Assembly (NCBI GenBank): GCA_964447075.1
Contig: CAYUQY010000004.1
Span: 3,760 to 67,759, forward strand
Direction of reading: 5' to 3'
Length of the DNA: 64,000 nucleotides
Source of the DNA: an uncultured Pseudomonadales bacterium
GTDB taxonomy: Bacteria; Patescibacteriota; Microgenomatia; UBA1400; PJMF01
Every line of letters starts with the position of its first letter. Position 1 is the first letter of the stretch. A program made the position numbers and the translations under genes. Shown piece by piece: positions 972 through 47,063 of this stretch. The notes beneath the pieces were generated by a model, which was not told the DNA's origin, searched no databases, and worked only from the letters and a program-made list of their open reading frames with translations.

Positions 972-989
972 TCACTTAAGCCTTTCAAG

Positions 990-2735: not shown

Positions 2736-2753
2736 GGAATGTATTTAGTAAAA

Positions 2754-3875: not shown

Positions 3876-3956
3876 ACCAAGTATGTCATTTTTGTGATAA
3901 TATCAGTCAAACCTAATTTGGGCTAGTGTCAGACTCCCAATCAGTAGACCTTATTT

Positions 3957-4136
3957 ATGAACTCAACTCAAGATAGAGAACTACGCTGTCTCCAAGAAAA
4001 ATCAGATGAAGTAGATGAAGAACTTTCAAAACTTGAGCAGTACTACCAACAGCTAAAAAAAGTACGCGCTGAGGTATTAAATAGTAGAATCTACAACATC
4101 TGGATCAAACTTCCAGTCATTATTCGCCATTTTTAG
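3957..4136 (+). CDS. Hypothetical small protein (59 aa) in a divergent intergenic region
   Basis: ATG at 3957 and TAG at 4134-4136, hand-translated: MNSTQDRELRCLQEKSDEVDEELSKLEQYYQQLKKVRAEVLNSRIYNIWIKLPVIIRHF. It has no recognisable family and no obvious SD, and is below the ORF-track length cutoff. Confidence 0.2.
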   Translation: MNSTQDRELRCLQEKSDEVDEELSKLEQYYQQLKKVRAEVLNSRIYNIWIKLPVIIRHF

Positions 4137-4194
4137 CTATTTTTTTCAGTAGCTAAATTTCATTTAACCTATAACAGTTGAGATCAGTCATATT

Positions 4195-5574
4195 ATGAAG
4201 GAAAATACAGATTTTTTACTAGATAAGCTCAAGAAAATTGAAAGAACTCTTGAATTACATAAAAAAATTGCTGTAGAGGAAGAATGGTTTTCATCTGTCG
4301 TATCAAAAAAAAGTTTCAGATTGCTGCTAAAATTCGCGCAGTGGATCAAATTCTCGAAAAAACATGATCAGTTAACTACTGCAAGTTTTCAAACTTATAA
4401 CACTAATTGGGAAAGTGACGATCCAATTACATTTCCATTTGTTTCAAAACCTGATGTATCAGTAATCATAGTTGTTTGGAACAAACCAGACCTCACCTGG
4501 TTGTGTCTTAGATCATTAGCGGCAACACAACAATCTAACACCTCATTTGAGGTTGTACTAGTTGACAATTTCTCCAATGATTCCACAAGAAAAATGTTGC
4601 ACAAGGTAAAGAATATTCGTGTCATCCAGAATCAGAAGAATGTCGGTTTTCTGAAAGCTTGTAACCAAGCAGCTGCAAAAATAAAAGGTGAGTTTATTTA
4701 TTTACTCAACAATGATGCTGAGGTACAGAATGCAACTATTTCAGAGCTGCATCATTCATGCCTAAATTCGAACATAGGCGCTGCAGGATCAAAAATCATA
4801 CTTTCTTCTGGATTACTGCAAGAAGCAGGGAGCATTATCTTCCGTGATGGATCAGCACTTGGATATGGTAGAAATGAATATCCTGATGCAGATGAATTTA
4901 ATTTTACGAGAGTAGTTGACTTTTGTAGCGGTGCATCACTTATGATTAAAGCAAGTCTCTGGAAAAAAATAGGTGGTTTCGACAAAATATTTAATCCTGC
5001 GTATTATGAAGAAACCGATCTATGTATGCAACTACGAAACCTCGGATTTAGTATTCAGTACGTACCCCAGTCTCAAATCATTCACAGAGAATATTCATCA
5101 AGCAATGCAACACAAGCAATGGAGTTAATGAAAATAAACAGAAAAAAGTTTGCTCAAAAATGGTCCAAACAACTGATTGCTCATTTTGAACCCTCTACGA
5201 GTATGAAATCTGTCCTTTTTTCAAGAGATGCATATCGTAGGCCCGGATGCCTCATTGCAGTAAGCAACTTGGCAGAATTAGAAGCTGTTTTGTACAAAAC
5301 CAAACACATAGGCACATTCTCAAAAATTAGTGTAAAGTATCAACTTTCCTTCTTTATTCAACAGATATCTATGCAACATTTTTCTAACATACGTGAAAAA
5401 TTCGGTAGAGTATCAATTGAATGCATTTCTCCTGAAAAAACAATTACAGAGCTACTAAAATCTCGTGATGGTTTTTACCAGCATCTTGTTATCACGCCTT
5501 ATTTTGCACACACGAACAAGATATCAAGATTGATTGCTCTCTTGAAGAATCAACCTCAAATAAGTATTTGTTGA
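4195..5574 (+). CDS. Family 2 glycosyltransferase (rhamnosyltransferase-like) with N- and C-terminal extensions
   Basis: VSVIIVVWNKPDLTWLCLRSL, VVLVDNFSNDST, YLLNNDAEV, DFCSGASLMIK and GGFDKIFNPAYYEETDLCMQL are canonical GT2 motifs. About 150 aa at the C-terminus have no recognisable motif. Confidence 0.8.
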   Translation: MKENTDFLLDKLKKIERTLELHKKIAVEEEWFSSVVSKKSFRLLLKFAQWIKFSKKHDQLTTASFQTYNTNWESDDPITFPFVSKPDVSVIIVVWNKPDLTWLCLRSLAATQQSNTSFEVVLVDNFSNDSTRKMLHKVKNIRVIQNQKNVGFLKACNQAAAKIKGEFIYLLNNDAEVQNATISELHHSCLNSNIGAAGSKIILSSGLLQEAGSIIFRDGSALGYGRNEYPDADEFNFTRVVDFCSGASLMIKASLWKKIGGFDKIFNPAYYEETDLCMQLRNLGFSIQYVPQSQIIHREYSSSNATQAMELMKINRKKFAQKWSKQLIAHFEPSTSMKSVLFSRDAYRRPGCLIAVSNLAELEAVLYKTKHIGTFSKISVKYQLSFFIQQISMQHFSNIREKFGRVSIECISPEKTITELLKSRDGFYQHLVITPYFAHTNKISRLIALLKNQPQISIC

Positions 5575-5582
5575 TATAGCAT

Positions 5583-6923
5583 ATGAAAAAAATCTTACTC
5601 GTTGGACTTTCTCCACTGCCCATTCAAGACAGCCAATACAACCATGCTGGGGGAATACGAACATGGCTTTTTATCCAAAAAATCATTAAGATTTTCCCAG
5701 CATACCAACTGGATGTCCATCTTCTTCATGCTAATACTTTTGATAGCTCACCCTTTCAACCCACCTTTGATATGGGTCTCAAAAATATCACTATTCATAC
5801 AGCATCTGAAAATGCTTTTCACAAAGGATACCTTAAGCAAGTTCTCAGTAGACAACAATACGATGCTGTTATTAGTATAAATACTTACCCAAGTTACTTC
5901 ATGAGTTTAGAAGAACCTGCACAACCATGGTGGGCAGATTTGCAAGGTGATCCAGTTGCTGAGGGTCAGTGTAAATCATTTGCTGATTCCGACAACAATC
6001 ATTACATCAACGCAGTAGAAATGACCAAGTCTATTCTATCTCATGCAGATTATTTTTCATCTTGTTCTTATAGACAAAAACTAAGTATTATAGGACAACT
6101 TGGTATGGTAGGTAAACTTGTAAAAGAAAATGAAGGCATAGATCTTGTCTCTTCAATACCTTTGGCTGTCCCACCAGCTCCTCTAAACACTTACGCTAAA
6201 AATTCACGCTTTTTCCGTATTATTTGGATAGGTGGATACAACACTTGGGCGGACGGTTCAACACTTTTTAATGCGCTGTATTTTGCTTTCCAAGCAAGAG
6301 AGAATATTCGATTTATCTCAACTGGTGGCATTATTAAAGGACATAGCGATTATGTTTATAGTAATTTTCTGCAGGCAGTTCAAGATAGTGAGTACGCAAA
6401 TAGGTGCGAGTTAAAAGGGTATGTGGACAACGAAGAACTTGATCAGCTTTTGTTTACTTCTCACCTTGGTCTAAACATTGACCGCTTTAGTTATGAAGGC
6501 TATCTTGGTGGCAGAAACAGAATCAATACATTCACACACTACGGTCTACCAACCATTACCACAGCAACTTCAGAAATTCCACATGAGCTTGAAAAAATTG
6601 ACGCGGTAATGACATATCCCGCCGGTGATTATCACACGTGTGCACAAAAAATTATTTGGGCAGCAGATCATCCAAACGAAATTTCTGACATGCAGAAGAG
6701 AGCACAAAAATATCTATTAGAAGAAGCATATGCAGAAAAGCACTATCAGGCGTTCTATGAGTGGCTAGAAAACCCTCTCAAAAGCCATACTCTCCCACTT
6801 GACATTAGCGCTTCTGATCCCCCAAATACAAGAATTGACAAGAAACTCATGAGGTCCATATTGAAGTTTGGATACTCCAATGCCTTAAGGGCGTTTATTT
6901 CTGGTAATAGTGCAGAATCATAA
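5583..6923 (+). CDS. GT-B fold glycosyltransferase (GT4-like)
   Basis: The N-terminus MKKILLVGLSPLP...HAGGI looks like a GT-B N-domain. The C-domain ELKGYVDNEELDQLLFTSHLGLNIDRFSYEGYLGGRNRINTFTHYGLPTITTATSEIPHEL fits the GT4 E-x7-E-like region. Only 8 bp separate it from the preceding GT2. Confidence 0.55.
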   Translation: MKKILLVGLSPLPIQDSQYNHAGGIRTWLFIQKIIKIFPAYQLDVHLLHANTFDSSPFQPTFDMGLKNITIHTASENAFHKGYLKQVLSRQQYDAVISINTYPSYFMSLEEPAQPWWADLQGDPVAEGQCKSFADSDNNHYINAVEMTKSILSHADYFSSCSYRQKLSIIGQLGMVGKLVKENEGIDLVSSIPLAVPPAPLNTYAKNSRFFRIIWIGGYNTWADGSTLFNALYFAFQARENIRFISTGGIIKGHSDYVYSNFLQAVQDSEYANRCELKGYVDNEELDQLLFTSHLGLNIDRFSYEGYLGGRNRINTFTHYGLPTITTATSEIPHELEKIDAVMTYPAGDYHTCAQKIIWAADHPNEISDMQKRAQKYLLEEAYAEKHYQAFYEWLENPLKSHTLPLDISASDPPNTRIDKKLMRSILKFGYSNALRAFISGNSAES

Positions 6924-14472: not shown

Positions 14473-16077
14473 CTAAAGACCTTTCAACTGTAACTTCATA
14501 TTATCATCTCTCCAAATAAGTATCTTCTCACCTGTGTAGAGACCTTGATTGAAGTCGTTCGCCTGGGCATGGTCGATGAAGTGATAGCGACCAACTCTCT
14601 CACCGTACCTCAAGCCTATCCTATCAGGTTGCTGCTTGATGACAGAAGCAAAGTACTCTGACGGTGGAAGTTTAATATACCAGGCTGTCAGGATGTAGAG
14701 GTAACCACTACCGTCCTCTACAGCCACCATTTCGTCTGATCTACCCTGTTCTTGTAGTAGGCTCTCCACTTTCCCTACCATGGTCTTGTACTCAGGCATG
14801 AGATCTCTTGTCTGCCCAGGAAACAGGACAAAAAAACGATAAAAGTAAGTTCCAGCTTCAAACACAAATAACACCACAACTAAGACTCCAATTAATTTTT
14901 GCACAAACTGACTCTTACGAGAAGCTGCCCAAAGCTCTCTTGCGCCCCAAAGACAGATAAAAACAATCATCCAGAAAAAAAATAAACTACGGGTAGCATG
15001 AGGAGCGTCAACAGTGACAACTGCTGGCGCTAAACCTACCACAAGGAAAAACAAGATAAGCAAACATTCTCTGCTCCTTTTTTTTAAAGTAAAAAATACT
15101 CCTAAAATCAAGAACAGATACTCAACCCAATAGATATGCGCTGTCCCATGAGCTGTGTGCCAGGGGTGATTCCCACCCTTGATGACCAAAAAATCTGGTA
15201 ATAGACTTGAAACTGTTCTGGCACCAATCTCCCTAGCAAAGAAAACCACCCGATTGCCTAGAAGAGCTCTAGTGAAAGCTGACTCAAAAGAAGCCCTATA
15301 GTCAACTGACGCCTTCCATGTCAGTTGGTCAGAAAAAAGGGTGATACCTTTTTTTTGACCAGTAGAAGCAGTGAAAAGATACATGCCCGAAAGAAAGACT
15401 ATGGATAAGATGCAGACCGGCAAGATCCATTTTTTCACAGTTGTAGCACCTCGCCAAAAAATAAGTGCTACTACCACAAAAGGCAAAAGTAAAAGTGGGG
15501 TGTTGTAGGTACAGATTGCCAACAAGAAAAGTAAGGCTCCTACAGCATCAACTACTTTTCTTCGCTTAAACTCTCCAAACAGTAAAGTCAGGCTAGCTGC
15601 CAAAAGTGATAGCCCCATGTTAGCCTCAAAAGCAATTCTGGAATAGAAGAAAAAGATGGGTGTAAAGGCTATAATTACGGCAGAGCTCAGTGACCAGCTT
15701 GTTGAAAACTTCAAGACTTTGTGAGCAAAATAATATGTTGTAGTAATTAAGATTAAGCCTGAGAAGGCAGATGGTAAACGTACTGCAAAATCATGAAAAC
15801 CAAAGATCATAAAAGAAAGTGTCGTGGCTAGCATGTAGCCAATCAGCTTGAAGTCACCAAACGACTGAGGAGTAAGCGGCCAACTTCTAGCCCACTCATC
15901 TTTACCAGTCTGAAGTAGAAGAAACGAGTTGTATGCCAGAGCAGCCTCATCTCGATTGAGAATGGCTGGCAAGGAGTCTAAAAAGCTAAAGCGCAAAATA
16001 ACGACTAAAACAAATAGGGATACTACCAAAATTGATAAGAGCTTATGGTTTCTAAAGTTGTTTCTAGTTATGATCAT
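14473..16077 (-). CDS. ArnT/PMT-like (GT39/GT83-like) membrane glycosyltransferase resembling the GT-C fold, subfamily A
   Basis: 534 aa. TM1 is followed by the loop LNRDEAALAYNSFLLLQTGKDEW. It has about 10 or more TM helices and a C-terminal soluble domain. Confidence 0.6.
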   Translation of the reverse strand: MIITRNNFRNHKLLSILVVSLFVLVVILRFSFLDSLPAILNRDEAALAYNSFLLLQTGKDEWARSWPLTPQSFGDFKLIGYMLATTLSFMIFGFHDFAVRLPSAFSGLILITTTYYFAHKVLKFSTSWSLSSAVIIAFTPIFFFYSRIAFEANMGLSLLAASLTLLFGEFKRRKVVDAVGALLFLLAICTYNTPLLLLPFVVVALIFWRGATTVKKWILPVCILSIVFLSGMYLFTASTGQKKGITLFSDQLTWKASVDYRASFESAFTRALLGNRVVFFAREIGARTVSSLLPDFLVIKGGNHPWHTAHGTAHIYWVEYLFLILGVFFTLKKRSRECLLILFFLVVGLAPAVVTVDAPHATRSLFFFWMIVFICLWGARELWAASRKSQFVQKLIGVLVVVLFVFEAGTYFYRFFVLFPGQTRDLMPEYKTMVGKVESLLQEQGRSDEMVAVEDGSGYLYILTAWYIKLPPSEYFASVIKQQPDRIGLRYGERVGRYHFIDHAQANDFNQGLYTGEKILIWRDDNMKLQLKGL

Positions 16078-16090
16078 GATTTAATTCTCA

Positions 16091-17881
16091 CTACTCTTCT
16101 CTACATTTTACCTTGTCACCATCCTTATAAGCGTTGCAGCTCAGTTTATCTATGACAAAGGTTTTGGAGCCATCAAGACTAGACAACCACTCCAAGTTCT
16201 CGACTTTTCCTCCAACTCTCAGTGAGAGCTCATTTGTAAAAAAAGGATCACCAACTAAGACTACTTCTTGATATCCCTCTGATCTCCAGCCTGAAAAGCG
16301 ATCGAAAGAAGCTGTACCTAATTTGATAAAACTTTGCTCCTGAGCATAAATCTGTTGAATTTGAGCAGAACTGTAGTCACCATAGGCTAGCAACCAGAGG
16401 AAAAATCGTCCCTCAAATGGCAAGATATAAATGGGAGCCTGAGATGTAGAGGAAAGCTGATTGACAGCTGCTGCTAGATCAAGATACTCTCTCTGCCAGA
16501 AGCTGGCCGATGAGGCTGGATAAACAGTGAAGTACTGGTAGCCAAAAGAAGTGAGCTGGAACACTCCAGCTAAAACTATAGCTGAACCCAGAACTGAAGC
16601 TAGAAGCTTGCCACTCTGGGCTGAGCTACCAACAACTTTTAGAAAAAATTCATAACTCTTCATCGCCCCATATGACATAAAAAGAACAATTGGTATCAAG
16701 CTATTAAGTGAACGCAAGGCATGAGGCACTTCACCAGGAACACAAGCTGGAAGCAGGGCAAACATCCACCAAGAAAGCAGAAATAAAAACCTAGCTCTAT
16801 CGTGAGCAAAAAGTGTCAGCAGTCCTATCACTAAAAAAGGGGCAAAAATTGACAGAAATAAACCTGAGTGGCCGGTTCCATGCCTGAGGTTTGAGTCTCC
16901 ATTTAAAAATAAAAAATCGAAAGAAAGTGTGGTTGAGTAGTTTTTGAGTAGTTGCCTAGTTAGCAAAACGTGGCGATGATACATAAATTTTGACAAAAGA
17001 GTGTTCTCAGAGAGTGCTCTAAGATGAGTTGACTCAGCCGCATAGTCAGTGTTCAGAATCGAGTTTGCACTCAATCTGAAGTGATTCATACTTGGGTAGA
17101 AAGGTGAGCGAAATAAGAACTGAAGGCCAAGTAAATAGACAAAAATGGGGAGTACTAGGTAAATCACTAAAGATTTGAACAGCTTGGATAAAAGTAATTT
17201 ATTCTGGTTGGAAAGAGACGACTGAGCAGCTTTCTGAGAACTTGAAAGATGGTACGGCAGCTCAATCAAGAGCCAGTAGGCCACAACTACTCCCAACCAG
17301 ACGAATAGAACTGAAAAATAAGTATAGGTAGCCAATAATCCAAAAATTGAGGCAAAGAACAAGTAAAATTTATTTTTTCGTGACAGAACTAGACAAAGAA
17401 CTGATAAACCAAGCAAGAATTGAGCCAAATGACCCTCAAATCCTGCCCGCGAGAACATAATTGACCAAGGAGAAAATCCTAGAACTGCCATAGCTGAGAG
17501 CTGCAGAACTCTTCTAGATGACAAGGAGTACTGATTGAACAACAAGCGGGCAAGCAGACCAACCAGAGCAATACTGCCCACTCCAGCCATCAAGCTAGGT
17601 AAGCGTACTACCCAGTCATGTGCGCCCAGAATTTTTATAAAAAAAGCAGAGCTCCAGATGTAGATAGGAAGCTTGTAGTCACCATAAGAGTAAAATATAG
17701 GCTGCCACCAGTTTCTACCATAGATATCCAACCCTGTCTGGGCTACAGCCCTTGCATCCACAAAAATGGCCACTTCATCCCAGTAGAGTGAGACTGGTAC
17801 AGCTCCAAAACGAAAGCCACGTACAGCAACTGAAGTTGACAAAATAAAGAGGAAAAAAAACCAAAATAGCTTTTTTCTCAT
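16091..17881 (-). CDS. ArnT/PMT-like membrane glycosyltransferase resembling the GT-C fold, subfamily A
   Basis: 596 aa. The first loop is LYWDEVAIFVDARAVAQTGLDIYG, followed by a multi-TM core. Confidence 0.6.
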   Translation of the reverse strand: MRKKLFWFFFLFILSTSVAVRGFRFGAVPVSLYWDEVAIFVDARAVAQTGLDIYGRNWWQPIFYSYGDYKLPIYIWSSAFFIKILGAHDWVVRLPSLMAGVGSIALVGLLARLLFNQYSLSSRRVLQLSAMAVLGFSPWSIMFSRAGFEGHLAQFLLGLSVLCLVLSRKNKFYLFFASIFGLLATYTYFSVLFVWLGVVVAYWLLIELPYHLSSSQKAAQSSLSNQNKLLLSKLFKSLVIYLVLPIFVYLLGLQFLFRSPFYPSMNHFRLSANSILNTDYAAESTHLRALSENTLLSKFMYHRHVLLTRQLLKNYSTTLSFDFLFLNGDSNLRHGTGHSGLFLSIFAPFLVIGLLTLFAHDRARFLFLLSWWMFALLPACVPGEVPHALRSLNSLIPIVLFMSYGAMKSYEFFLKVVGSSAQSGKLLASVLGSAIVLAGVFQLTSFGYQYFTVYPASSASFWQREYLDLAAAVNQLSSTSQAPIYILPFEGRFFLWLLAYGDYSSAQIQQIYAQEQSFIKLGTASFDRFSGWRSEGYQEVVLVGDPFFTNELSLRVGGKVENLEWLSSLDGSKTFVIDKLSCNAYKDGDKVKCREE

Positions 17882-17905: not shown

Positions 17906-19735
17906 ATGGCTATATCTTCCCCTTTTCAAAGCTTACTCTTACGGACCAACAAGGCCTGGAGTATTGGAGTTGTTGCTCTAGTTGTTACTCTAGTCATAAC
18001 TGTTATGGGCCTACTAGGTACGCTACCTCTCTTTCACGATGGCCTCTACACTGCCCATGATATTTGGCACCAGATGGCTAGAGCCCATCACTACTTTGAA
18101 GTCGCCAAAGCAGGACAGTTCCCACCATATTGGGTAAGCAGCCTTGCTCAAGGATACGGCTACCCGCTTTTTTTCTTTTCGTACCACGCTCCTTGGTTGA
18201 TCGGACTGCCCTTGTCGTATCTTTTTTCAACAGAAGTCGTGATTAAACTTTTGTTCGGAGTTAGCTTTCTACTTTCAGGTTTCTCTATGTACTTTTTAGG
18301 TTATGTTATTTTTCGCCAAAAACTCCCCGCCCTTCTTTCTAGCGTACTTTACATGTGGGCTCCGTTTCATTTCTTAACCCTGTATGTAAGTGCTGCCATC
18401 GGCACTGCTTTCGTCTTTAGCTTTTTGCCTCTGGTTTTCATCGGACTAATTCTCTCAAAACAGCCTGGTAAACAAACGACCAGCATAGCCTGTTTGAGCG
18501 TAGGTTGTGCTGGCATTATCCTCTCGCACTTGATCACTTTCGTGATGTTTTTACCATTTTTTATTCTGGGATTGATCTATGTTTTGATCGATAAAACACG
18601 AGAAGTTTCTCTAGCCAAGATCTTTATGACTCTAGTTCTGGGGGGAGTGCTTAGTCTTGGAATAAGTAGCTTTTATTTAGTTCCTGCAGGCTACTACAAC
18701 AAGCTGACTGTTATCTCGACCCAAGCTGGGTTTGAAGACGTCTACAAGGGTAGTTTTGTTAATTTTTCACAGCTCATCTACTCACCTTGGGGTTTTGGAC
18801 CAATTATTTCTTCCGCCAAAGATGGTGAAATTTCACTTCAGCTCGGCCTTGGTCAATGGCTGGTAGTTCTCATGTCTATTTTAGTTCTTGGCTTAGGCAA
18901 AGTACTTAAGAGTAAGATACCTCAGACCAACCCTCTTACCAACCTGCTTATGTTTTGCCTCTGCTCGCTTGGGCTGTCTCTTTTTCTCATGACAGATGGC
19001 TCCAGACTTCTCTGGGACCTGGTCTCAAAAAATATCACCATCGACTATCCTTTTAGACTCTTAACCATTGGAATCTTTTTTTCCAGCTTGATAGGTGGCT
19101 GGCTACTTTATGCCATGAAGTCGTTACTCACCCAAGTTAGCCTGATAGGTAGAAAATTCAGAAGTATTGGCCTAGGTGTGACATTTATCAGCATAGTTAT
19201 AGTGATCTTGTACACCAATCGAAACTATGTTCGAGTCAATCTCTACACCAATGAGCCAGAATCACTCTATGTAGCCGCAGAGACTACTACCAACACTTTT
19301 CACGAGTACTTGCCGAAGAATGCCAAAAGAGAGCTCATAAATAAAGCCCACCAACCGATTGTTGCTTCCACGACAAATGAGGCTCATGTTTTATCTCAAG
19401 ACTCTTTTCAAAACTCCCTCCAAGTCATAGTTGAGTCTCCCACTGGGACAACTCTCACTTTCCGTCAATTTGATTTCCCTGGTCTGTCTGTGTTTCTCAA
19501 TGACCGTAAGTTACTTAAGCACACAACTGACGAAAGTGGCTTAATAAGAGTTGAGGTTCCAAGTGGCAAAAATACTCTCGTTGTAGAGTTTGTCAAAACT
19601 CCTTTGATTCAACTCAGTCTTTTTGTCACAGCCGTCTCTTTGGTTGTTCTGATCTACCTTGTTGCGCGTGAGATTATCTCCAAGGCTCATAAAAGTGCTA
19701 AAATACTAATACTCGATCCTGGAACACAAAATTAA
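17906..19735 (+). CDS. Uncharacterised polytopic membrane protein, subfamily B (HD..H..R motif)
   Basis: 609 aa. LFHDGLYTAHDIWHQMARAHHYFEVAKAGQFPPYW parallels ORFs 10696 and 39471. It has a C-terminal beta-rich extracytoplasmic domain and a terminal TM. Confidence 0.4.
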   Translation: MAISSPFQSLLLRTNKAWSIGVVALVVTLVITVMGLLGTLPLFHDGLYTAHDIWHQMARAHHYFEVAKAGQFPPYWVSSLAQGYGYPLFFFSYHAPWLIGLPLSYLFSTEVVIKLLFGVSFLLSGFSMYFLGYVIFRQKLPALLSSVLYMWAPFHFLTLYVSAAIGTAFVFSFLPLVFIGLILSKQPGKQTTSIACLSVGCAGIILSHLITFVMFLPFFILGLIYVLIDKTREVSLAKIFMTLVLGGVLSLGISSFYLVPAGYYNKLTVISTQAGFEDVYKGSFVNFSQLIYSPWGFGPIISSAKDGEISLQLGLGQWLVVLMSILVLGLGKVLKSKIPQTNPLTNLLMFCLCSLGLSLFLMTDGSRLLWDLVSKNITIDYPFRLLTIGIFFSSLIGGWLLYAMKSLLTQVSLIGRKFRSIGLGVTFISIVIVILYTNRNYVRVNLYTNEPESLYVAAETTTNTFHEYLPKNAKRELINKAHQPIVASTTNEAHVLSQDSFQNSLQVIVESPTGTTLTFRQFDFPGLSVFLNDRKLLKHTTDESGLIRVEVPSGKNTLVVEFVKTPLIQLSLFVTAVSLVVLIYLVAREIISKAHKSAKILILDPGTQN

Positions 19736-20566: not shown

Positions 20567-22312
20567 ATGAAAAAATCAATAATTTTGCTGTCAGTAATTT
20601 TTTTGGTAGGCTTGTTTTTTCGACTCTACAAACTAGATACTCTTCCCAATGAGCTGCACAGAGACGAAGCGGCAATTGGCTACAACGCCCTGTCCATTCT
20701 CAAGACAGGTAAAGATGAACATGGAGCTGGACCCTTTCCAACTGTTTTTTTATCTTTCGGTGACTACAAGTTACCAGGATTAATTTACCTAACAGCCGCA
20801 AGTATTCAGTTACTTGGAGTTTCTATTATTGCCGTGCGCCTACCTGTAGCCCTAGTTGCCTCACTGCTTGTTCCTGCTGTTTTCTTTTTGATCCACGAGC
20901 TCTACGCCAGCAAAAGAACTGCCCTCGTCGCAGCCTTCTTAGCGGCCACTTCTTTTGTCCACATCTTCACTTCTCGTACAGCGTACGAGCCTGCTGTAGC
21001 CCTAACACTCTTCATCACAGCTTTGACCTTTCTTCTTGCAGCTCGCCGCAGAACCGTTTTTTGGATTCCAGCTCTAATCTTTTTTAGCCTTTCCTTTTTT
21101 ACCTACAATGTTCCACTCCTGATAACTCCTGTCTTGCTTGGAGCCACACTCTACTTGTGGAGAGCTGAGTATCTGAAGAACAAAAAAGTCACAGCAGTAG
21201 CCATCGGAATTTTTGGATTAATTTGGTGTGTTTCACTTTTTAGCTTCAAAGACATTATCACCGGCAAGCTAGGAGCAACTATCTTCACCAACCAACCCTT
21301 GCTTCAAGAATCACTGGATAGACGCATTTCCTTGATGCGATCTGGCCTACCCTACAGATTCAGCAACATCGTCATCAACGACTACTTAGAGATGATTCAA
21401 AATATTTCAGAGCGCTATCTCAAAGCCTTTGATACCCAGTTTCTTTTTTTTGAAGGTGGAACCAATCACTGGCACAGTCTAGGAGGGATTAGAGTTGGTA
21501 ACCTCTCAATTTTCCTAGCACCATTTATAGCCTGGGGTTTATTTCTTCTTTTTTCAGATGTTCGCCATCCGTCAAAACTTTCAAAAGCTAGCCTTTTCTT
21601 GCTGATATACTTAGTTTTGTCTATGGTGCCAAATGGCATAACGATAGACTCACCTGTCACTAATAGGCTGATGGATTTTCAGCTCATTCTTTTGCTTTTA
21701 GCTGCCAAAGGAGTAGATACCTTTCTTCAATCAATCGGCGCTAAATTTGTGTTCAAAAAACATAAACTCCAGTATCTGAGTTTAGTTGGTAGCTTGAGTT
21801 TAGTGTACCTCTTCTTTTTCACTCGTTTCTGGCTCTCGTACTCGCAGCTCTTCAATCAAAAACTGGACAGATCGTGGGGAGAAGGTGCTACTCAACTAGC
21901 TCAAGAAGTAGCTCTCATCAGTAGTAAATATGATCAAATCTACATGTCGATGCAGCCAAACTCTGGTTTGCCTGATGTAGAGCTATTTTATGTATATTTG
22001 GCCCTTTTTAACCAAACTGATCCTGCTACCTTTCAAAAAACTGCAGTCTGGAAACATGACTCTAGTTTCCTGAGGCCAGCGTCATTCGACAAGTTTGTCT
22101 TCAAGAAAATAGGCCCTGAGATGAAAGAAGAGCTATCAGCGTTGTCTCAAAAAACTTCCAAGCCACAGACTCTGCTTAACCTAGAGTGGCTAGGCCCCAA
22201 CGAAGAACCAAGAGGAGATGCTGTCATTTTGATTAAGAACAGCTCTGGAGAGCCTTCCTGGCAAGCCACAGAGATAAAACTTGCACCAACTACCCCTACT
22301 GTTCATGAGTAA
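20567..22312 (+). CDS. ArnT/PMT-like membrane glycosyltransferase resembling the GT-C fold, subfamily A
   Basis: 581 aa. The first loop is LHRDEAAIGYNALSILKTGKDEHG. The last 13 codons and the TAA stop lie in copy 1 of the 57-bp tandem repeat. Confidence 0.6.
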   Translation: MKKSIILLSVIFLVGLFFRLYKLDTLPNELHRDEAAIGYNALSILKTGKDEHGAGPFPTVFLSFGDYKLPGLIYLTAASIQLLGVSIIAVRLPVALVASLLVPAVFFLIHELYASKRTALVAAFLAATSFVHIFTSRTAYEPAVALTLFITALTFLLAARRRTVFWIPALIFFSLSFFTYNVPLLITPVLLGATLYLWRAEYLKNKKVTAVAIGIFGLIWCVSLFSFKDIITGKLGATIFTNQPLLQESLDRRISLMRSGLPYRFSNIVINDYLEMIQNISERYLKAFDTQFLFFEGGTNHWHSLGGIRVGNLSIFLAPFIAWGLFLLFSDVRHPSKLSKASLFLLIYLVLSMVPNGITIDSPVTNRLMDFQLILLLLAAKGVDTFLQSIGAKFVFKKHKLQYLSLVGSLSLVYLFFFTRFWLSYSQLFNQKLDRSWGEGATQLAQEVALISSKYDQIYMSMQPNSGLPDVELFYVYLALFNQTDPATFQKTAVWKHDSSFLRPASFDKFVFKKIGPEMKEELSALSQKTSKPQTLLNLEWLGPNEEPRGDAVILIKNSSGEPSWQATEIKLAPTTPTVHE

Positions 22313-22386
22313 CAAAGCTCTCACAGAGAGATAAAACTTGCACCAACTACCCCTACTGTTCATGAGTAACAAAGCTCTCACAGAGA
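22273..22386. repeat. Perfect 57-bp tandem direct duplication (2 copies: 22273-22329 and 22330-22386)
   Basis: Unit gataaaacttgcaccaactacccctactgttcatgagtaacaaagctctcacagaga, read twice back-to-back with no mismatch. It contains the stop of the + gene in copy 1 and the stop of the - gene in copy 2. Confidence 0.9.
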
Positions 22387-24191
22387 ACTTTGGGCGTGAG
22401 TGACTCTAGATTGAAGTTATCCTGTCTAACGTGACTAAATCGATCTAAGTTGTGCTGGGCACAGAGAGTGTCGTTGTAGATCCTAAAGATAGCTCCTGAG
22501 TCAAGTAGTGAGGGTATTGCTCTTGTGACTAGACTCTTCTTGTCGTAATCGAGAGGAGTGCTCTCACACCAGCCTATATTGGCGTCAGCAATAACGGTTG
22601 TCTGACCATCAAACATTTCTGGCTTCAGACAAGCTGTGTCCACTCTGAGATTGTTAAGCAGGTACTTTTCTGATTTAACTGCCTGTTGAATTTGAGACAT
22701 ATTCTCACTGTTAATTGATTGAGAAAAGTAGAGGATTTCCTCAAACACAAATCTGCTTTCATCGGCTAGAACAATTAGTTTTTGTGTTCTTGGAAGGCGC
22801 AGATAGTAGTTGGCTACCACTCTCTCAGCAAAGTAAGTTCCTCTAGTACCAATGATAGGTAGTCGAAAAAAGTACTCAAAGGAAAAACGACTCACGAAAA
22901 TGAAGTAAACGATGATGATTGACGATCTCAACCACCACTTCGAGCTCGACCATACTGTACCCAGCCCAACTCCTGCCAACAAAACATAGGTAGGAATGAG
23001 AAGGCTAGCTCGAAATGCAATCCAAGTATCACGCCTACTCAAGGCCACTGGCAAAGGAGCTGTCAACAACAAGCCTGTAATCAAAATAGCAGCCAGACGA
23101 TACTCCTTCTTTTTCCACAACACTCCAAAACCTATCACTATAAAAACTAAATCTACTGTGTGAAAAAATCCCAATGACCAGACTGAAAATGGATTGCGCA
23201 CTGGCTCGCCAGACACAAAAAAGAGCCTTAGGTCAAAGCTTTCTACATACTTAGCTATAAACTCTTTAGTAAGATAGGTGTACTTATTGGAAACGGTACT
23301 TAACCAAGGAACGTCAAGAGTTAGCTGGCGATCTTCATTGACTAAGGCTTGGACTCGACTCATGTCAGAAAATATAAAGTCTCCTAGACGACTGCTAGCT
23401 TTCTGATTTTTTAAGTTTAGTAAGAAAAAAGCTACCATCACGAAGCCGCTGCAGAAGAACACTACCCAAGTAAAGACACTGTGCCAAGATATTTTCTTTG
23501 AGAGCTGTCTAGACTCAAGATAATCGTAAGTAATGAGCAAGATAATTATCGGCAAGAAAACTACTTTGTGTCCTTGATACTGATAGAAACCCAAACTAAG
23601 CGGCAAGAGTGTCAAAAGCTTCCACCAACCCTTTGTTCTCAAGAATATCCAGATGCCTGAGAAGTAACACAACAAGCTTAAAAGAGGATCAAAACCACTT
23701 CTAGAAAACTGGAACAGCCAGGGATTAAAAGTAGCTGCTAGAGCTACACTGATAGCAATGACCCGATTGGAAAACAGCTTTAAAGCCACTGCCGACAAAA
23801 CCACTATCATCAATACCCCTGCCATGATGGACACAAGCTTGGCAGATAGCGGCCAGACCGCTGTCACTAAAAAACCCAGAGACATTAAAACGCCTGGTAG
23901 TTCAGCAAAAAGAGGATGGGCAACTGTCAAGCTCCAGGGTCTCCACTCACCTGATTGATCGGAGCCTGTCAAACTCACACTGCGAGCTTGATTGAGGTAA
24001 AAAACCTCGTCATGGCTAACCACGGGTGGAAGGCTTTCAATTTTGTAGACACGCCCCAAAATAGCGAACAGTACTAGAAGGCACCAAAAAAGTGTCCATC
24101 TGTTTTTTAAAGAGAGTAGTTTTTTAACAAGCATTTTTTTGTTTAACATAGGCTGTGGCATCGTAAAAATAAACGTAACGTAGTGAACCAT
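22353..24191 (-). CDS. ArnT/PMT-like membrane glycosyltransferase resembling the GT-C fold, subfamily A
   Basis: 612 aa. The first loop is VSHDEVFYLNQARSVSLTGSDQSGEW. The C-terminal ...LCESFVTHEQ* is encoded on the reverse strand of repeat copy 2. The start is uncertain: ATG at 24191, or internal ATGs at 24149 or 24134. The last would give the 11-bp ATGCTTGTTAA start/stop overlap with the upstream gene. Confidence 0.6.
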   Translation of the reverse strand: MVHYVTFIFTMPQPMLNKKMLVKKLLSLKNRWTLFWCLLVLFAILGRVYKIESLPPVVSHDEVFYLNQARSVSLTGSDQSGEWRPWSLTVAHPLFAELPGVLMSLGFLVTAVWPLSAKLVSIMAGVLMIVVLSAVALKLFSNRVIAISVALAATFNPWLFQFSRSGFDPLLSLLCYFSGIWIFLRTKGWWKLLTLLPLSLGFYQYQGHKVVFLPIIILLITYDYLESRQLSKKISWHSVFTWVVFFCSGFVMVAFFLLNLKNQKASSRLGDFIFSDMSRVQALVNEDRQLTLDVPWLSTVSNKYTYLTKEFIAKYVESFDLRLFFVSGEPVRNPFSVWSLGFFHTVDLVFIVIGFGVLWKKKEYRLAAILITGLLLTAPLPVALSRRDTWIAFRASLLIPTYVLLAGVGLGTVWSSSKWWLRSSIIIVYFIFVSRFSFEYFFRLPIIGTRGTYFAERVVANYYLRLPRTQKLIVLADESRFVFEEILYFSQSINSENMSQIQQAVKSEKYLLNNLRVDTACLKPEMFDGQTTVIADANIGWCESTPLDYDKKSLVTRAIPSLLDSGAIFRIYNDTLCAQHNLDRFSHVRQDNFNLESLTPKVLCESFVTHEQ

Positions 24192-25863
24192 TGGCTGAGC
24201 GAATTACCTTGAGTGGCTCAACAAAATCAAGTTCTTCGTTGGTCATGAAGACAGCTCTTTGACCCAGTTTTTCAGCCTCACAACCTACAGAATCAAGTGA
24301 AACATCTTTGACAAAAATATTATTATAGTTGACCGTGTGCTGAAAGCCTGAAGCTTCTTTTTCTCCAAGGACCGCCGATGATTGATACTTCTGGGGATCA
24401 AGGTGGTTGTAAAAAGCATAAAACATAATTGGATCTGAGAAAAATGGCCTAATGACGACTCTCGTCTCAGGGCTAAAAGTACTCAGATACTCATACGACT
24501 CAGGTAAGTAAGATTGATACAGAGCATCATTTTTGAGGCTATGGATAAAAATAAAGTCAGAAACAAACCGTAAACCTGAAAAACTATAAATGACTCCCCA
24601 GGCTAACCAAAAGCAACTTAAGGCAAGGCGGCCATGTTTATGGCGAGAGTTAAGGATCATAGATGTCAAGCTAAGAGCGCCAGCAACTATCAAAATTAAA
24701 ATAAAAGGAAAAAGCGCAGACATTCGCACTTTTTGGGCTTCGCCAGCGAGTATGGTAGGAATAGGCGTAACGATCAAACCAAGCAGCACCAGCCATTTTG
24801 CTAAAGGATCTAGTCCTAGAGTTTTGGGAAAACAAATAAAAGCTACCAAGCCAATAATCAGCAGTGGATAAACAAGCGGGAAAAACTGGCCAGTTTGATC
24901 AACAGTCAAAAAAGGTGTGTCTTTTTCCCCTTGGGTGACAAGATATTGAGGTGAAAAAACATGAAGATAGCGCGATGCAAGAGTGCTGATAACTTCGAGT
25001 GGCTTGTTCCAGAGCAAGCTACAGACTGATAGTGGTAACTGCATGTTACAGAAAGTGCGCTGCTCATTGATTTTTTGGGCTAGGCCAGTATCTGAGGTAA
25101 TACCCACTTGTTTGTAGCGGCTGGTAAAAGAGCTAATAGCTGCCGGTTGAAAGAGAGGCAGAACGGTCAGAACAAAAGCCAGAATCCAGATAAAAATAGA
25201 TTTTCGCGGAAGGTTAGTTTTTTTATCTGAGTAAAACAGCCAAGTTGAGCAGAAAATTAAAATCAGAGCGGTGATAGGTCGATATGAGATGTAAGCATAC
25301 CAAGTCAGAGCCAGTGAGATACCAGAGCTTACTAAGAAGATCTTGTGGTACTTCGGAGACTGTAGGGCTGCTCCCAAAAGTGACAAGCCCAGGGTAAAGA
25401 GGAACAGAGCCAAGTTAGACTCCAATCCAAAGCGACTCAAGAAAATACTCCAAGGACTGAAAGCGGTCACAACTGCTGCCAGAGAGAAAGCCCACCATCT
25501 CTTGTCATTTTTCCAAAAGATTGCCAACATCAAAAAACCAGAAACAAGTGGCAGGACACTCCCTGCCAAAGCAGAGGGAACTCTGATGCTCAGGGTACTA
25601 AGACCCATGCTAGCCACAACTGGCATCAGACTGTAAGCATAGGCAGGCAGTTTATCGTCACCAAACCCTTTAAATATAACCGGCCACGAGCTGGAGTGTT
25701 CATCTCTGCCAGTAGCAAGAAGAGAGTAGGCGATGTATCCAAAGTGAGCCTCATCTACTAAGGCACCTTTGGGTGCAGAACCTAGCTGCCAAAAACGCAT
25801 GAGAGCACCTGAAATCAGAGCCAAAACAAGCAAAATAACTGGGAGTAGATAAGACTTTTTCAT
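24124..25863 (-). CDS. ArnT/PMT-like membrane glycosyltransferase resembling the GT-C fold, subfamily A
   Basis: 579 aa. The first loop is GALVDEAHFGYIAYSLLATGRDEHSSSWPV. It has a multi-TM core and a C-terminal soluble domain. Confidence 0.6.
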   Translation of the reverse strand: MKKSYLLPVILLVLALISGALMRFWQLGSAPKGALVDEAHFGYIAYSLLATGRDEHSSSWPVIFKGFGDDKLPAYAYSLMPVVASMGLSTLSIRVPSALAGSVLPLVSGFLMLAIFWKNDKRWWAFSLAAVVTAFSPWSIFLSRFGLESNLALFLFTLGLSLLGAALQSPKYHKIFLVSSGISLALTWYAYISYRPITALILIFCSTWLFYSDKKTNLPRKSIFIWILAFVLTVLPLFQPAAISSFTSRYKQVGITSDTGLAQKINEQRTFCNMQLPLSVCSLLWNKPLEVISTLASRYLHVFSPQYLVTQGEKDTPFLTVDQTGQFFPLVYPLLIIGLVAFICFPKTLGLDPLAKWLVLLGLIVTPIPTILAGEAQKVRMSALFPFILILIVAGALSLTSMILNSRHKHGRLALSCFWLAWGVIYSFSGLRFVSDFIFIHSLKNDALYQSYLPESYEYLSTFSPETRVVIRPFFSDPIMFYAFYNHLDPQKYQSSAVLGEKEASGFQHTVNYNNIFVKDVSLDSVGCEAEKLGQRAVFMTNEELDFVEPLKVIRSANGSLRYVYFYDATAYVKQKNAC

Positions 25864-28579: not shown

Positions 28580-30490
28580 TTACTTAACAAGAAGTATTTT
28601 CCAAATTTCTTCATTTTGTGGACCTTTCACACTCTCCAAAACTCTAACAGATTCAAACTTATTACTTACTTTTTCAAACATGGCTGGTGAAACAGCTACT
28701 ACACCTTTGGTAATCTCATCAATTGAGTTAAAAAAGACCATCCGTTTTGGAAAAGTCATACTTAGAAGCTCACCCTGATCATGATAATTTATTTTGTCAT
28801 TTTTCTGCACGACTATGGGATCAATTTTACTATAAAACCAGTAGTACATAGCCGGCCTTCCCTGTGATCTAGCCACGAACTGTGTTTCGCTGGAGTAGTC
28901 TTGATCAATAGCTTCAAGTTTGGAGAAGAGCTCTTGATAACCATACTGCCACCAGGCTACTGCCGCTTGTTTGGTATAGATAGTTGTGTAGTAACTCCAG
29001 AAGAGTCCGAACTGGGTTAAAACTGAAAGTACCAGGAGGCCAATCGTCACAATCTTCATCCCGAAACTTGGCATGAGTAGTTTTTTTAAGTTAAACGTAG
29101 TAAATAAAACATTTCTTGAGACTGAAGCCTGCAGTTGCGATGCGCTTTTGAGTACTACATTAACTAGACTACTTGCCCCTACTGTCGACACCACCAACCA
29201 GACTGGTAAAGTAATCAGAATTCTCAAAGCATGGGGGGAGCCAAAAGAGATAGCAGAAGGCAAGATGCCTATAAATAGCCAGAAGGACAGTAGTAAGTAC
29301 TTCCTAGAAAAGTTTTTGATCACTACTACCAAGCCAAAAAAAAGAAAAACTAAGTCTAGAGGATAGAACAAGCCGAAGTAGCCAGTAGAGTGTCGCAAGT
29401 TACTATCTCCACTCAAAAACAAAAAATCCAGTCTAAAGTGGGAGAAAAAATTGGCAGTAATCTCTTTAGCAAACAAGACGTAGCGATGAAAGATAAGTCT
29501 TGAAACTAAAGTATGACCACTCTGCTCAATAAGTCGATTGCTTTTTTCAATGATGGAAATGTCAGTAAAGATACTCGTTTGGGCAAACCGCTGTTGCAGG
29601 ACAGGACTTCTTGAGGCCAACAAGATTGGCGTCACAAGAGATAAAAAGAGAGCAGTTAGTCCTACAAATAAGTAGCGTTTTTGCTGAAGATTCTGTATCA
29701 AGCTTTTTTTTAAGCTAAAGCTAGGAGAAAGTTTAAGAGAAAAAAGGTACTCAAGCATGAGATAAACCCAAAGTATTGGCGCCACAACTCTGGCTGCGTG
29801 ATAGGCATACATGGACAGTCCAAATAAAACTGTACCTGCCGCCAACTGAACATAAGAGGAAAAAGCAAAACTTTCATTCTTGCTAAGAGCAAGAGTTTTT
29901 TTGCTAGACTTAATCTCAGTTGCTGATGATCTATTTGAGTTAACAACCACAACTGTTTCTTGGCCAAACTCAACTGCAGCTCTCATCAAAATTACGGCCC
30001 AAAGAATGAGACAACTACTCAAGTTTACCTCCCATCCACCTCGAGAAAACATCACTGCCCAAGGATTGAGTGATGCAAGGAACATACCTAGCAACTGAAG
30101 CCTGTTACTCTTGGTGAGCTGTTTGATCAAAACGCCTACTCCAATCACTATCATTACCCCAGCAACTACGCTCGGGAGTCTGACTGCTTCCACAGTTAAG
30201 CCAAAGAGAGCTATAAAAGGAACTACAGCATAAAAATAAAGGCTAGGTTTCCAGTCACCAAAAGACTCAAAAGCAACTACTGGAAAAAAATTACCATGAT
30301 GATCTTTGCCAGTTTTTAAAATGGAGTAGGCATCATAACCCAGTGCTACTTCTTCCCAATATGGGGAAGGAGGCGTGCTTGTAAGGAGTGTTAGCCGTAC
30401 TCCTAAAGCAAGAAAAACTAGCAAGCTAAACAAAAGTCCGAACCAATGTGCTGAGAGAAATCGTCTAGTGTTTTCAATCATATTTTTCAT
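28580..30490 (-). CDS. ArnT/PMT-like membrane glycosyltransferase resembling the GT-C fold, subfamily A
   Basis: 636 aa. The first loop is SPYWEEVALGYDAYSILKTGKDHHGNFFPV. Confidence 0.6.
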   Translation of the reverse strand: MKNMIENTRRFLSAHWFGLLFSLLVFLALGVRLTLLTSTPPSPYWEEVALGYDAYSILKTGKDHHGNFFPVVAFESFGDWKPSLYFYAVVPFIALFGLTVEAVRLPSVVAGVMIVIGVGVLIKQLTKSNRLQLLGMFLASLNPWAVMFSRGGWEVNLSSCLILWAVILMRAAVEFGQETVVVVNSNRSSATEIKSSKKTLALSKNESFAFSSYVQLAAGTVLFGLSMYAYHAARVVAPILWVYLMLEYLFSLKLSPSFSLKKSLIQNLQQKRYLFVGLTALFLSLVTPILLASRSPVLQQRFAQTSIFTDISIIEKSNRLIEQSGHTLVSRLIFHRYVLFAKEITANFFSHFRLDFLFLSGDSNLRHSTGYFGLFYPLDLVFLFFGLVVVIKNFSRKYLLLSFWLFIGILPSAISFGSPHALRILITLPVWLVVSTVGASSLVNVVLKSASQLQASVSRNVLFTTFNLKKLLMPSFGMKIVTIGLLVLSVLTQFGLFWSYYTTIYTKQAAVAWWQYGYQELFSKLEAIDQDYSSETQFVARSQGRPAMYYWFYSKIDPIVVQKNDKINYHDQGELLSMTFPKRMVFFNSIDEITKGVVAVSPAMFEKVSNKFESVRVLESVKGPQNEEIWKILLVK

Positions 30491-37801: not shown

Positions 37802-39433
37802 CTAGTGTTTGGCCACCTTCAAACTCGATATTTCAAACAGCAATTTTTGTTTGCCAGTAATCAAGATTGAGAGTAAGTAAGTTAGACCAGTAAAAAAGAT
37901 TCCAGAGAAATACCAACTCCAGCTGAGACTCCACAACTCCAAACCCAGCACAGCCACACAGGCCATAGCCACTGCAGAAAGAAGTTGTCTCCAGACATTC
38001 TCCCAAACTTTAATAGGAACTATTTTTTTGAAACTCCAGATGGGCAGAATAGAAGTAAATGAAATAATGATAGCTGCCCAGGCTACTCCATTGAAGCCTA
38101 ACCACCACATGAGAGGGATGGTCAGAACCCAAGTCAGAGCTGTCCAAAAAACCATCAACTTCAGAGTAGTGTTTATCTCTCCTATAGCATTGAGCGCATT
38201 CATGAGTGGACTGGATACTGCTCCCCAACCTATGCTGAGGGTGAATAAAACCAAGGAAAGCAAGGCTGGCTGCCACTTTAGATATCTCGGCTCAAGAATC
38301 GTGAGAGGTGCCATGAAAACAGACATCCCAACTACTATCGGAAAGATAATTAAAGTTATAAAGAACAGTGACTTTTCGACTACAGAGCCTAAAAGTTTTT
38401 TATCGTGCTGAAGTCTGGAGAAGGTTGGAAAAGTAACAGCCATCACATTTTGGACAGTAAGATTATAAGGATACATAGACCAATTTTTGGCCCAAGTAAC
38501 ATAACCAAACTCGCGAAGAGGCAGGTAGTACCCCAGACATAAGTAAAAAAATTGATCTTTTAGTCGTGCTAGAAGATCGTTGAGTTGAAACTTGAAGCCA
38601 AACTTCATCAAGGTGCTCAGAGATGAACGATCCCAGGCAAAGTGAGGTCTCCACCACTCAATGTAAAACATAGCCAACACGCCACTTAGGGATCTCACCA
38701 AAGTAGCCAAGACGTATGACCACACTCCCCAACCAGTTACAACCATTCCAACTAAACAGACATTGAAGCTAAGTTGCTCTATTATTTGAGGCCAAACTAG
38801 CTTTTGAAAATCAAGTCGCCTCTCTAGCTTTAGTGAAGGTACAGTCTTTAAGCTAGCCAAGGGGAAAGCAAGTGCTAGAGCTAGAGCCAACCAGGTACCC
38901 ACCTCACCTGTCTTTTCAGCTATCAATCCCTCATGCCGGCTCCAGCTACAACTAGAAGGAAATAATTGAATCGCACAGCCTGCATATCTCAATAAATTGG
39001 ATCCCTGACTTGAGATCAGAAAAATGGTAATGCCTACTATTAACCAGGATAAAAGCTGTTGAACAGAAAAGGCTGTTGCATAGTCAGCTTCTGTAGGCTC
39101 GTCTTTTTTCTGAATTAGAGCTGCAGCCAAACCTATGTCAGAGAAGAAAACCAGCATACCCACTATCTGGGTCACAAAACCATAAATACCAAACTCTTCG
39201 GGACTTAGATACTTGCTAAGTAGTAAGCTAGCCACCAAACCAATTATTTGCAAGAAGATAGTACGACCAAAGTACGACATCGCTCCTGAGACGGACTTCT
39301 TTTTTACGCTTTCAAAGTTCAGAGCGTCAGCTACTAGTGAGGATGATTTTGGTAGAGACATACTGTAGAGACTTTTCAAATGGTACCAGATCTCGCTTAC
39401 AATTAGTTTTAAATTTAAATCAAAATTTAACAA
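37802..39433 (-). CDS. wzx: Wzx-type polysaccharide flippase (MOP superfamily, Polysacc_synt-like)
   Basis: FGRTIFLQIIGLVASLLLSKYLSPEEFGIYGFVTQIVGMLVFFSDIGLAAALIQKK is the characteristic PST-family N-terminal region. It has 12 or more TM helices. The first ~24-51 residues may be untranslated, with alternative ATGs at 39361 and 39280. Confidence 0.65.
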   Translation of the reverse strand: MLNFDLNLKLIVSEIWYHLKSLYSMSLPKSSSLVADALNFESVKKKSVSGAMSYFGRTIFLQIIGLVASLLLSKYLSPEEFGIYGFVTQIVGMLVFFSDIGLAAALIQKKDEPTEADYATAFSVQQLLSWLIVGITIFLISSQGSNLLRYAGCAIQLFPSSCSWSRHEGLIAEKTGEVGTWLALALALAFPLASLKTVPSLKLERRLDFQKLVWPQIIEQLSFNVCLVGMVVTGWGVWSYVLATLVRSLSGVLAMFYIEWWRPHFAWDRSSLSTLMKFGFKFQLNDLLARLKDQFFYLCLGYYLPLREFGYVTWAKNWSMYPYNLTVQNVMAVTFPTFSRLQHDKKLLGSVVEKSLFFITLIIFPIVVGMSVFMAPLTILEPRYLKWQPALLSLVLFTLSIGWGAVSSPLMNALNAIGEINTTLKLMVFWTALTWVLTIPLMWWLGFNGVAWAAIIISFTSILPIWSFKKIVPIKVWENVWRQLLSAVAMACVAVLGLELWSLSWSWYFSGIFFTGLTYLLSILITGKQKLLFEISSLKVAKH

Positions 39434-47034: not shown

Positions 47035-47063
47035 AATTACCTTTGAGGTCGAGAGACTTAATA

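Follow-up and report, generated by a model that had tools for sequence, protein, structure and literature searches.

A probable recent tandem duplication at the convergent 3' ends of two predicted GT-C glycosyltransferase genes in a metagenomic contig

The stretch of DNA analysed here, hereafter the window, comprises 64,000 nucleotides (nt) of a contig from an uncultured bacterium that is deposited as a member of the Pseudomonadales and placed by GTDB within the Patescibacteriota (NCBI GenBank assembly GCA_964447075.1, contig CAYUQY010000004.1, positions 3,760 to 67,759 of the forward strand). Two genes for predicted GT-C-type glycosyltransferases, referred to below as the + gene and the - gene according to their strands, converge in this window, and the segment that carries their 3' ends is present as two identical copies of 57 nt in tandem. 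The duplication is silent for both proteins, and a 40-nt spacer has taken the place of an overlap between the two genes. We consider it probable that this arrangement reflects a genuine and very recent tandem duplication of the slippage type, which left the proteins as they were and converted a convergent overlap into a spacer.

Structure of the tandem repeat

Tandem Repeats Finder reports the interval 22270-22386 as a repeat with a period of 57, 2.1 copies, 100% matches and no indels. Direct sequence comparison reveals that copy 1 (22270-22326) is identical to copy 2 (22327-22383), that the two copies abut directly, and that the match continues for 3 nt past copy 2 (AGA, 22384-22386), so that 2 x 57 nt and a further 3 nt repeat head to tail without a mismatch. 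The element thus has at least two adjacent copies of high identity in the same orientation, as expected of a tandem duplication. The initial annotation of this stretch had described a perfect 57-bp tandem duplication starting at 22273; the identity of the copies bears out the description, and the start is to be moved to 22270, where the periodic stretch begins. The junction of copy 1 and copy 2 reads CTCTCACAGAGAGATAAAACTTGC, and the repeat is flanked by GCCAC on the left and by ACTTTGGG on the right. No other direct repeat of at least 25 nt is present in the window, and a 32-nt core of the unit occurs at only two sites in it when 3 mismatches are allowed (0 expected by chance). The features of the locus are as follows.

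20567-22312, + strand: the + gene, 581 amino acids, a predicted glycosyltransferase of the PMT/PMT_2-type GT-C class, assigned by Pfam
22353-24191, - strand: the - gene, an open reading frame (ORF) of 612 amino acids for a predicted GT-C-fold membrane protein with a C-terminal soluble domain
22270-22326: copy 1 of the 57-nt unit; read on the + strand, the + gene from the third base of codon T568 through codons E569-E581 to its TAA
22327-22383: copy 2 of the 57-nt unit; read on the - strand, codons C590-Q598 (numbering of the 598-residue form, see below) and the TAG of the - gene
22384-22386: AGA continuation of the repeat, the microhomology at the duplication boundary, inside an AGAGA run; on the - strand, most of codon L589
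22313-22352: intergenic spacer of 40 nt, repeat sequence throughout, in place of the putative ancestral 17-nt overlap
22190-22381, - strand: mechanical ORF of 63 amino acids, antisense to the 3' end of the + gene and largely repeat sequence

The assignment of the final 13 codons of the + gene, together with its TAA, to copy 1, and of the last 10 or so codons and the TAG of the - gene to the opposite strand of copy 2, had already been made in the initial annotation and is confirmed by the ORF list and the sequence. The + gene product ends in ...EIKLAPTTPTVHE (...SWQATEIKLAPTTPTVHE in a longer reading), with the TAA at 22310-22312, and the - gene product ends in ...LCESFVTHEQ* (...TPKVLCESFVTHEQ* in a longer reading), with the TAG at 22353-22355. 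The ORF at 22190-22381, which had been put down to the repeat and called spurious, does exist, shows no sign of being a gene, and is likewise regarded as spurious here.

The start of the - gene is ambiguous, in that the longest ORF, from 24191, shares 68 nt with the end (24124) of the co-directional gene upstream. Public gene calls place the start at 24149, which gives 598 amino acids and still leaves an upstream overlap of 26 nt.

Effect of the duplication on the two genes

To obtain the single-copy state, one 57-nt copy was deleted in silico and the remaining sequence was re-translated. Both products are unchanged in length and sequence (581 and 612 amino acids), as each gene enters the copy nearest to it from its own unique flank and stops there, so that neither protein is altered by the second copy. 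In the single-copy form, the + gene still ends at 22312, the - gene has a stop codon that begins at 22296, and the two genes, with their frames intact, have 17 nt of their 3' ends in common, both stop codons included. Because the proteins are the same and the overlap appears once a copy is removed, the duplication does separate the two genes, as the initial annotation had proposed: 40 nt lie between them now, against a 17-nt overlap in the single-copy form. The convergent overlap that it had predicted for a single-copy ancestor is also reproduced, at 17 nt in place of its estimate of approximately 15 bp.

Evidence from independent assemblies

The window comes from a metagenome-assembled contig in NCBI that is 70,392 nt long, was built from short reads and was recognized by 100% protein matches (P0001 and P0118). 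Exact look-ups of neighbouring proteins led to Logan contigs of the same locus in two sequencing runs, SRR8670877 and SRR8670878. The contigs SRR8670878_19510 (72,708 nt) and SRR8670877_1179 (69,812 nt) both stop at window position 22299, and SRR8670877_31764 (35,138 nt) begins at 22357. The look-ups also reported a second contig with the right-hand genes.

These breaks were compared with a simulated de Bruijn graph at k=31, the value that we take Logan to use and with which the 30-nt reach of the contigs into the repeat from both sides agrees. With the duplicated sequence as input, the simulated breaks fall at 22299 (end of the left unitig) and 22357 (start of the right unitig), exactly as observed, whereas the single-copy sequence produces no break. 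The assembly breaks thus point to the presence of the tandem junction in the reads of both runs. The initial annotation had left the choice between a very recent event and an assembly artefact, and the real event is now favoured, as the breaks in the two k=31 run assemblies match the duplicated state. The different lengths of the Logan left contig (72,708 nt) and the source contig (70,392 nt) indicate that the assemblies are independent. Over 12.4 kb, the SRR8670878 contig matches the window at every base, with no single-nucleotide polymorphisms (SNPs), and the SRR8670877 contigs differ from it by 4 and 5 SNPs, which indicates that two slightly different consensus populations carry the junction.

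The SNPs of SRR8670877 relative to the window are clustered, with 4 in 46 nt (18202-18247) and 3 in 52 nt (24835-24886). Both clusters lie inside GT-C-like genes and look more like short tracts of recombination or gene conversion than like scattered point mutations.

Exact-protein look-ups of the + gene and the - gene themselves returned no record, and the Logan copies of both are cut at the repeat. An exact search for the 23-nt left flank in the Joint Genome Institute (JGI) metagenomes gave 0 matches, and a literature search on the two run accessions found no paper.

The gene pair in relatives

The nearest relative in the collections searched, designated L003, shares 56% amino acid identity with the window in the - gene and 55% in the + gene, and the GTDB representatives share at most 42%. 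With no close relative at hand, the arrangement of the gene pair was compared instead of the single-copy sequence. Loci of GTDB species representatives found through the - gene family (51 in number), together with L003, were screened for a convergent neighbour of the + gene family. The convergent pair is conserved in five relatives, with the following spacing.

L003 (GCA_964479905.1): gap of 147 nt
L004: gap of 6 nt
L011: gap of 2 nt
L013 (CP011212.1, record titled TM6 bacterium): overlap of 17 nt, 5739-5755
L033 (CAZSHY010000050.1): overlap of 17 nt, 1399-1415

In L013, in L033 and in the single-copy form of the window, the TAA of the partner gene is the reverse complement of a TTA that lies across the F-[IV] codons of the conserved C-x-x-F-[IV] tail. 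The 17-nt overlap in these two distant relatives may be either ancient or the result of repeated origins. The remaining convergent pairs in the window are separated by gaps of 4, 1 and 9 nt, with which a compact or overlapped ancestor of the present pair would be in keeping. An overlapped ancestor is therefore plausible, since the same arrangement occurs in relatives.

The relatives that carry a name are mostly Patescibacteria (Pacebacteria/Paceibacterota, Woesebacteria, Levybacteria and Microgenomates-type). Many records of metagenome-assembled genomes (MAGs) with this - gene family, which is typical of Patescibacteria, are titled "uncultured Pseudomonadales bacterium" (L009, L010, L012, L017-L021 and others), one further record is titled "Vitreimonas sp." and another "Limisphaerales"; the taxonomy looks mislabelled or the contigs mis-binned.

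The two proteins and their C-termini

The + gene product matches the Pfam models PMT_2 (31.0 bits, cut-off 26.1) and PMT (29.1 bits, cut-off 22.7). The - gene product has no Pfam match at E <= 0.01, and Pfam holds no model for its family. The profiles of the two families align with each other over 422 columns (probability 99.9%, E 8.8e-34), and searches of PDB sequences with both profiles gave no matches. Evidence from a predicted fold was obtained for the - gene, the AlphaFold model of which has a mean predicted local distance difference test score (pLDDT) of 83.8 and a predicted template-modelling score (pTM) of 0.85. Every PDB match of this model at E <= 0.001 is a GT-C enzyme, with TM-scores of about 0.4-0.5, and the matches comprise STT3/PglB/AglB, ArnT, ALG12/ALG9, Pmt4 and DPY19. 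Additionally, a motif just past the first helix is invariant in each family (R32-D33-E34 in the + gene, H46-D47-E48 in the - gene); this [RH]-D-E motif we take to be the catalytic DE/DxD motif of PMT and ArnT. Sequence, and for the - gene also the modelled fold, therefore support the view in the initial annotation that the pair are GT-C paralogues: both are predicted to be GT-C-type glycosyltransferases and appear to be distant paralogues.

The two ends that meet in the repeat differ in conservation. In the - gene family, the tail is conserved, and C507, C528, C563 and C590 are invariant (598-residue numbering; C590 is the cysteine of LCESFVTHEQ). The 56%-identical orthologue of the - gene (P0119) ends at the same residue (...FCEQFIIQEQ*), and the AlphaFold model gives the C-terminal 20 residues of the window protein pLDDT values of 83-87 and places a helix at 586-593. 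The reading of the unit on the - strand is under protein constraint. In the + gene family, the last conserved residue of the alignment is W565, beyond which the tails are about 7-17 amino acids long and unrelated in sequence; the tail of the window protein (16 amino acids) is in this range, and the L003 orthologue stops 7 residues sooner (...WQATEITLQH*). The + strand reading, as judged from the alignment, is a tail that is specific to the lineage and unconstrained. Both C-termini are taken as authentic, because the - gene tail matches the end of its orthologue and the + gene tail is within the length range of its family.

The four invariant cysteines of the - gene family lie in a C-terminal soluble alpha/beta domain (residues about 450-598, 22353-22800), and their conservation suggests two disulfides in an extracytoplasmic domain.

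Origin of the duplication and alternative explanations

Small tandem duplications by slippage are ordinary mutations, and the most probable course of events here would be of this kind. A 57-nt segment holding the 17-nt tail-to-tail overlap of two convergent GT-C genes would have been duplicated in tandem very recently, most likely through replication slippage (slipped-strand mispairing) or unequal sister-strand exchange at the 3-nt AGA, which sits in AGAGA runs 57 nt apart. The overlap would thereby have become the 40-nt spacer, and the 3' ends, which share no nucleotides any more, would be free to evolve independently. The change was probably near-neutral overall. We infer, and do not observe, the slippage mechanism, the near-neutrality and the status of two copies as the dominant state of the population. 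Several points weigh against this account. A microhomology of 3 nt is weak evidence for slippage, as an extension of at least 3 nt is expected by chance with a frequency of about 0.05. An 8-nt repeat, CACAGAGA, brackets the region at 55 nt and not 57 and is thus off register; slippage between these repeats was rejected as a simple cause because of this mismatch between spacing and period. A break at k=31 means that the junction k-mers exist and speaks neither to the share of genomes that carry them nor to a copy number of exactly 2. The accessions SRR8670877 and SRR8670878 are adjacent and may belong to one study or site, which limits their independence. Finally, the collections searched hold no genome above 56% amino acid identity, and the single-copy state was not found in a sister lineage.

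The closest competitor, possible but clearly less likely, is that the duplication is real and polymorphic, with genomes of one copy and of two (or more) copies mixed in the population. A perfect direct repeat of 57 nt is easily gained and lost, the deposited sequence represents one state, both states encode the same proteins so that there is nothing obvious to select between them, the lack of divergence between the copies speaks for a young event, and pure and mixed populations yield one and the same topology of the k=31 graph. There is no direct counter-evidence, although the resolution of two copies in the source assembly suggests a well-supported state and the junction is present in both runs. 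That the change was adaptive, selected because it releases the structurally constrained end of the - gene product from the + gene tail, or because it lessens antisense pairing or interference of the convergent 3' ends, is improbable. The conserved and confidently modelled - gene tail (with its invariant Cys590) opposite a variable + gene tail, the non-overlapping arrangement in several relatives, and the practice of engineers, who part overlapping genes in the same way by duplicating the overlap (PMC9952402), would all fit such selection; however, the 17-nt overlap persists in two distant relatives and has thus been long tolerated, the copies are without any divergence, and the spacer contains neither a terminator nor significant RNA structure. 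A related and similarly doubtful suggestion, to which we give marginally more credence, is that the duplication represents the first step of a natural "decompression" of a conserved 17-nt overlap that distant relatives retain, maybe selected for the release of the constrained, Cys-containing end of one GT-C enzyme from its neighbour's tail, and maybe segregating as a copy-number polymorphism.

An assembly artefact, in which a genome with a single copy was given a second one by the assembler or scaffolder, for example through an untrimmed overlap of contig ends, is very unlikely. Assembly is known to fail in this way, by exact duplication where contigs are joined; the copies are identical, and the source contig derives from a short-read metagenome. 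Against this, the breaks in the k=31 assemblies of the two runs lie at the very bases predicted for a tandem junction, and a single-copy sequence gives no break; additionally, none of the common metagenome assemblers has, to our knowledge, 57 as a default k. Least probable of all is a non-coding function of the repeat, whether as terminator, small RNA or protein-binding repeat, or as the target-site duplication or att scar of a mobile element. A weak terminator-like hairpin does exist at the copy junction (22330-22318 on the - strand), with a 5-bp stem CTCTC/GAGAG followed by CTTTGTTACT. Terminator-like hits in the region, however, are not in excess (2, compared with 0.8 +/- 0.8 in shuffled sequences), folding z-scores range from -0.74 to +0.81, and both frames of the unit read as ordinary coding sequence. 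An intrinsic terminator or RNA element was accordingly rejected, on the grounds of the short stem, the shuffle-level counts, the unremarkable folding and an Rfam search without a match at E <= 1. A mobile element or dispersed repeat was also rejected, as the copies abut with nothing between them and there are no further copies in the 64 kb; target-site duplications are usually far shorter than 57 nt. A recent, protein-neutral tandem duplication of the slippage type is therefore preferred.

Genomic surroundings

Around the locus is a large island of glycan synthesis, which holds many other GT-C-like genes along with GT2/GT4 enzymes, an acyltransferase and a Wzx-like flippase (37802-39433). The region 990-41279 is an unusually dense array of large membrane proteins that are GT-C or candidate GT-C proteins, with the GT2/GT4 enzymes, the acyltransferase and the flippase interspersed among them. 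Pfam matches above the cut-off in the island are PMT_2 at 990-2735, 14473-16077 and 20567-22312 (the + gene), PTPS_related at 17906-19735 and YfhO at 39471-41279; sub-threshold PMT_2 matches are found at 16091-17881 and 28580-30490. The product of 24124-25863 is 25% identical to the + gene product (E 5e-28). The G+C content of positions 1-6000, which include the PMT_2-type gene at 990-2735, is 0.32-0.36, compared with 0.40-0.46 elsewhere in the window, and this part may be a compositionally distinct, acquired portion of the glycan island. The interval 47028-53387 (+ strand) encodes a bacterial alpha-2-macroglobulin-like protein of 2119 amino acids with MG2, bait-region, A2M, bMG10 and Big_5 domains, in a genome that seems to belong to the Patescibacteria.

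Relation to known systems and significance

With two identical head-to-tail copies, no spacer between them and a unit of tens of nt, the repeat resembles the tandem duplications that arise in bacteria by slippage or at microhomologies, and the short AGA at its boundaries may be a further resemblance. Most described cases break or lengthen a reading frame, whereas the unit here spans the stop codons of two convergent genes, leaves the proteins as they are and turns an overlap into a spacer. It shares with the artefacts of de Bruijn assembly a perfect short duplication in a short-read metagenome contig, but differs from them in that the k=31 assemblies of two runs exhibit the graph signature of a real junction.

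The origin of convergent overlaps has been attributed to the movement of stop codons (PMC4161906), which matches the inferred ancestor; this ancestor, L013 and L033 resemble other prokaryotic convergent overlaps in that the overlap is set by the placement of the stop codons. The length of 17 nt is unlike the typical convergent overlap in bacteria, which is 4 nt with CTAG or TTAA (bioRxiv 10.64898/2026.09.10.750558). Duplication as a route to the loss of an overlap is unmentioned in PMC4161906 and in bioRxiv 10.64898/2026.09.10.750558 (0 occurrences of "duplicat"), and among the overlap papers listed by the literature search, "tandem duplication" occurs in a single paper, which is unrelated. 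In recoded synthetic genomes, overlapping genes have been separated by duplicating the shared segment (PMC9952402), so that, as here, each gene receives a private copy of that segment and both proteins are unchanged; unlike in this refactoring, the event in the window is natural, concerns convergent 3' ends, and has left copies that are undiverged and not recoded.

The locus shows a familiar type of event, which here took place in nature and at a tidy position; it does not represent a novel type of element, and the current understanding of glycosyltransferases, of Patescibacteria and of mutation mechanisms is unchanged by it. For annotation, both gene ends are to be kept as annotated and the repeat-encoded ORF disregarded, since the duplication is very probably real. 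For small tandem repeats in MAGs more generally, the positions at which independent k=31 assemblies break into contigs can serve as a check in place of read mapping. For the gene pair itself, the duplication would be a clean natural example of a convergent overlap that is lost in one step, with neither protein touched.

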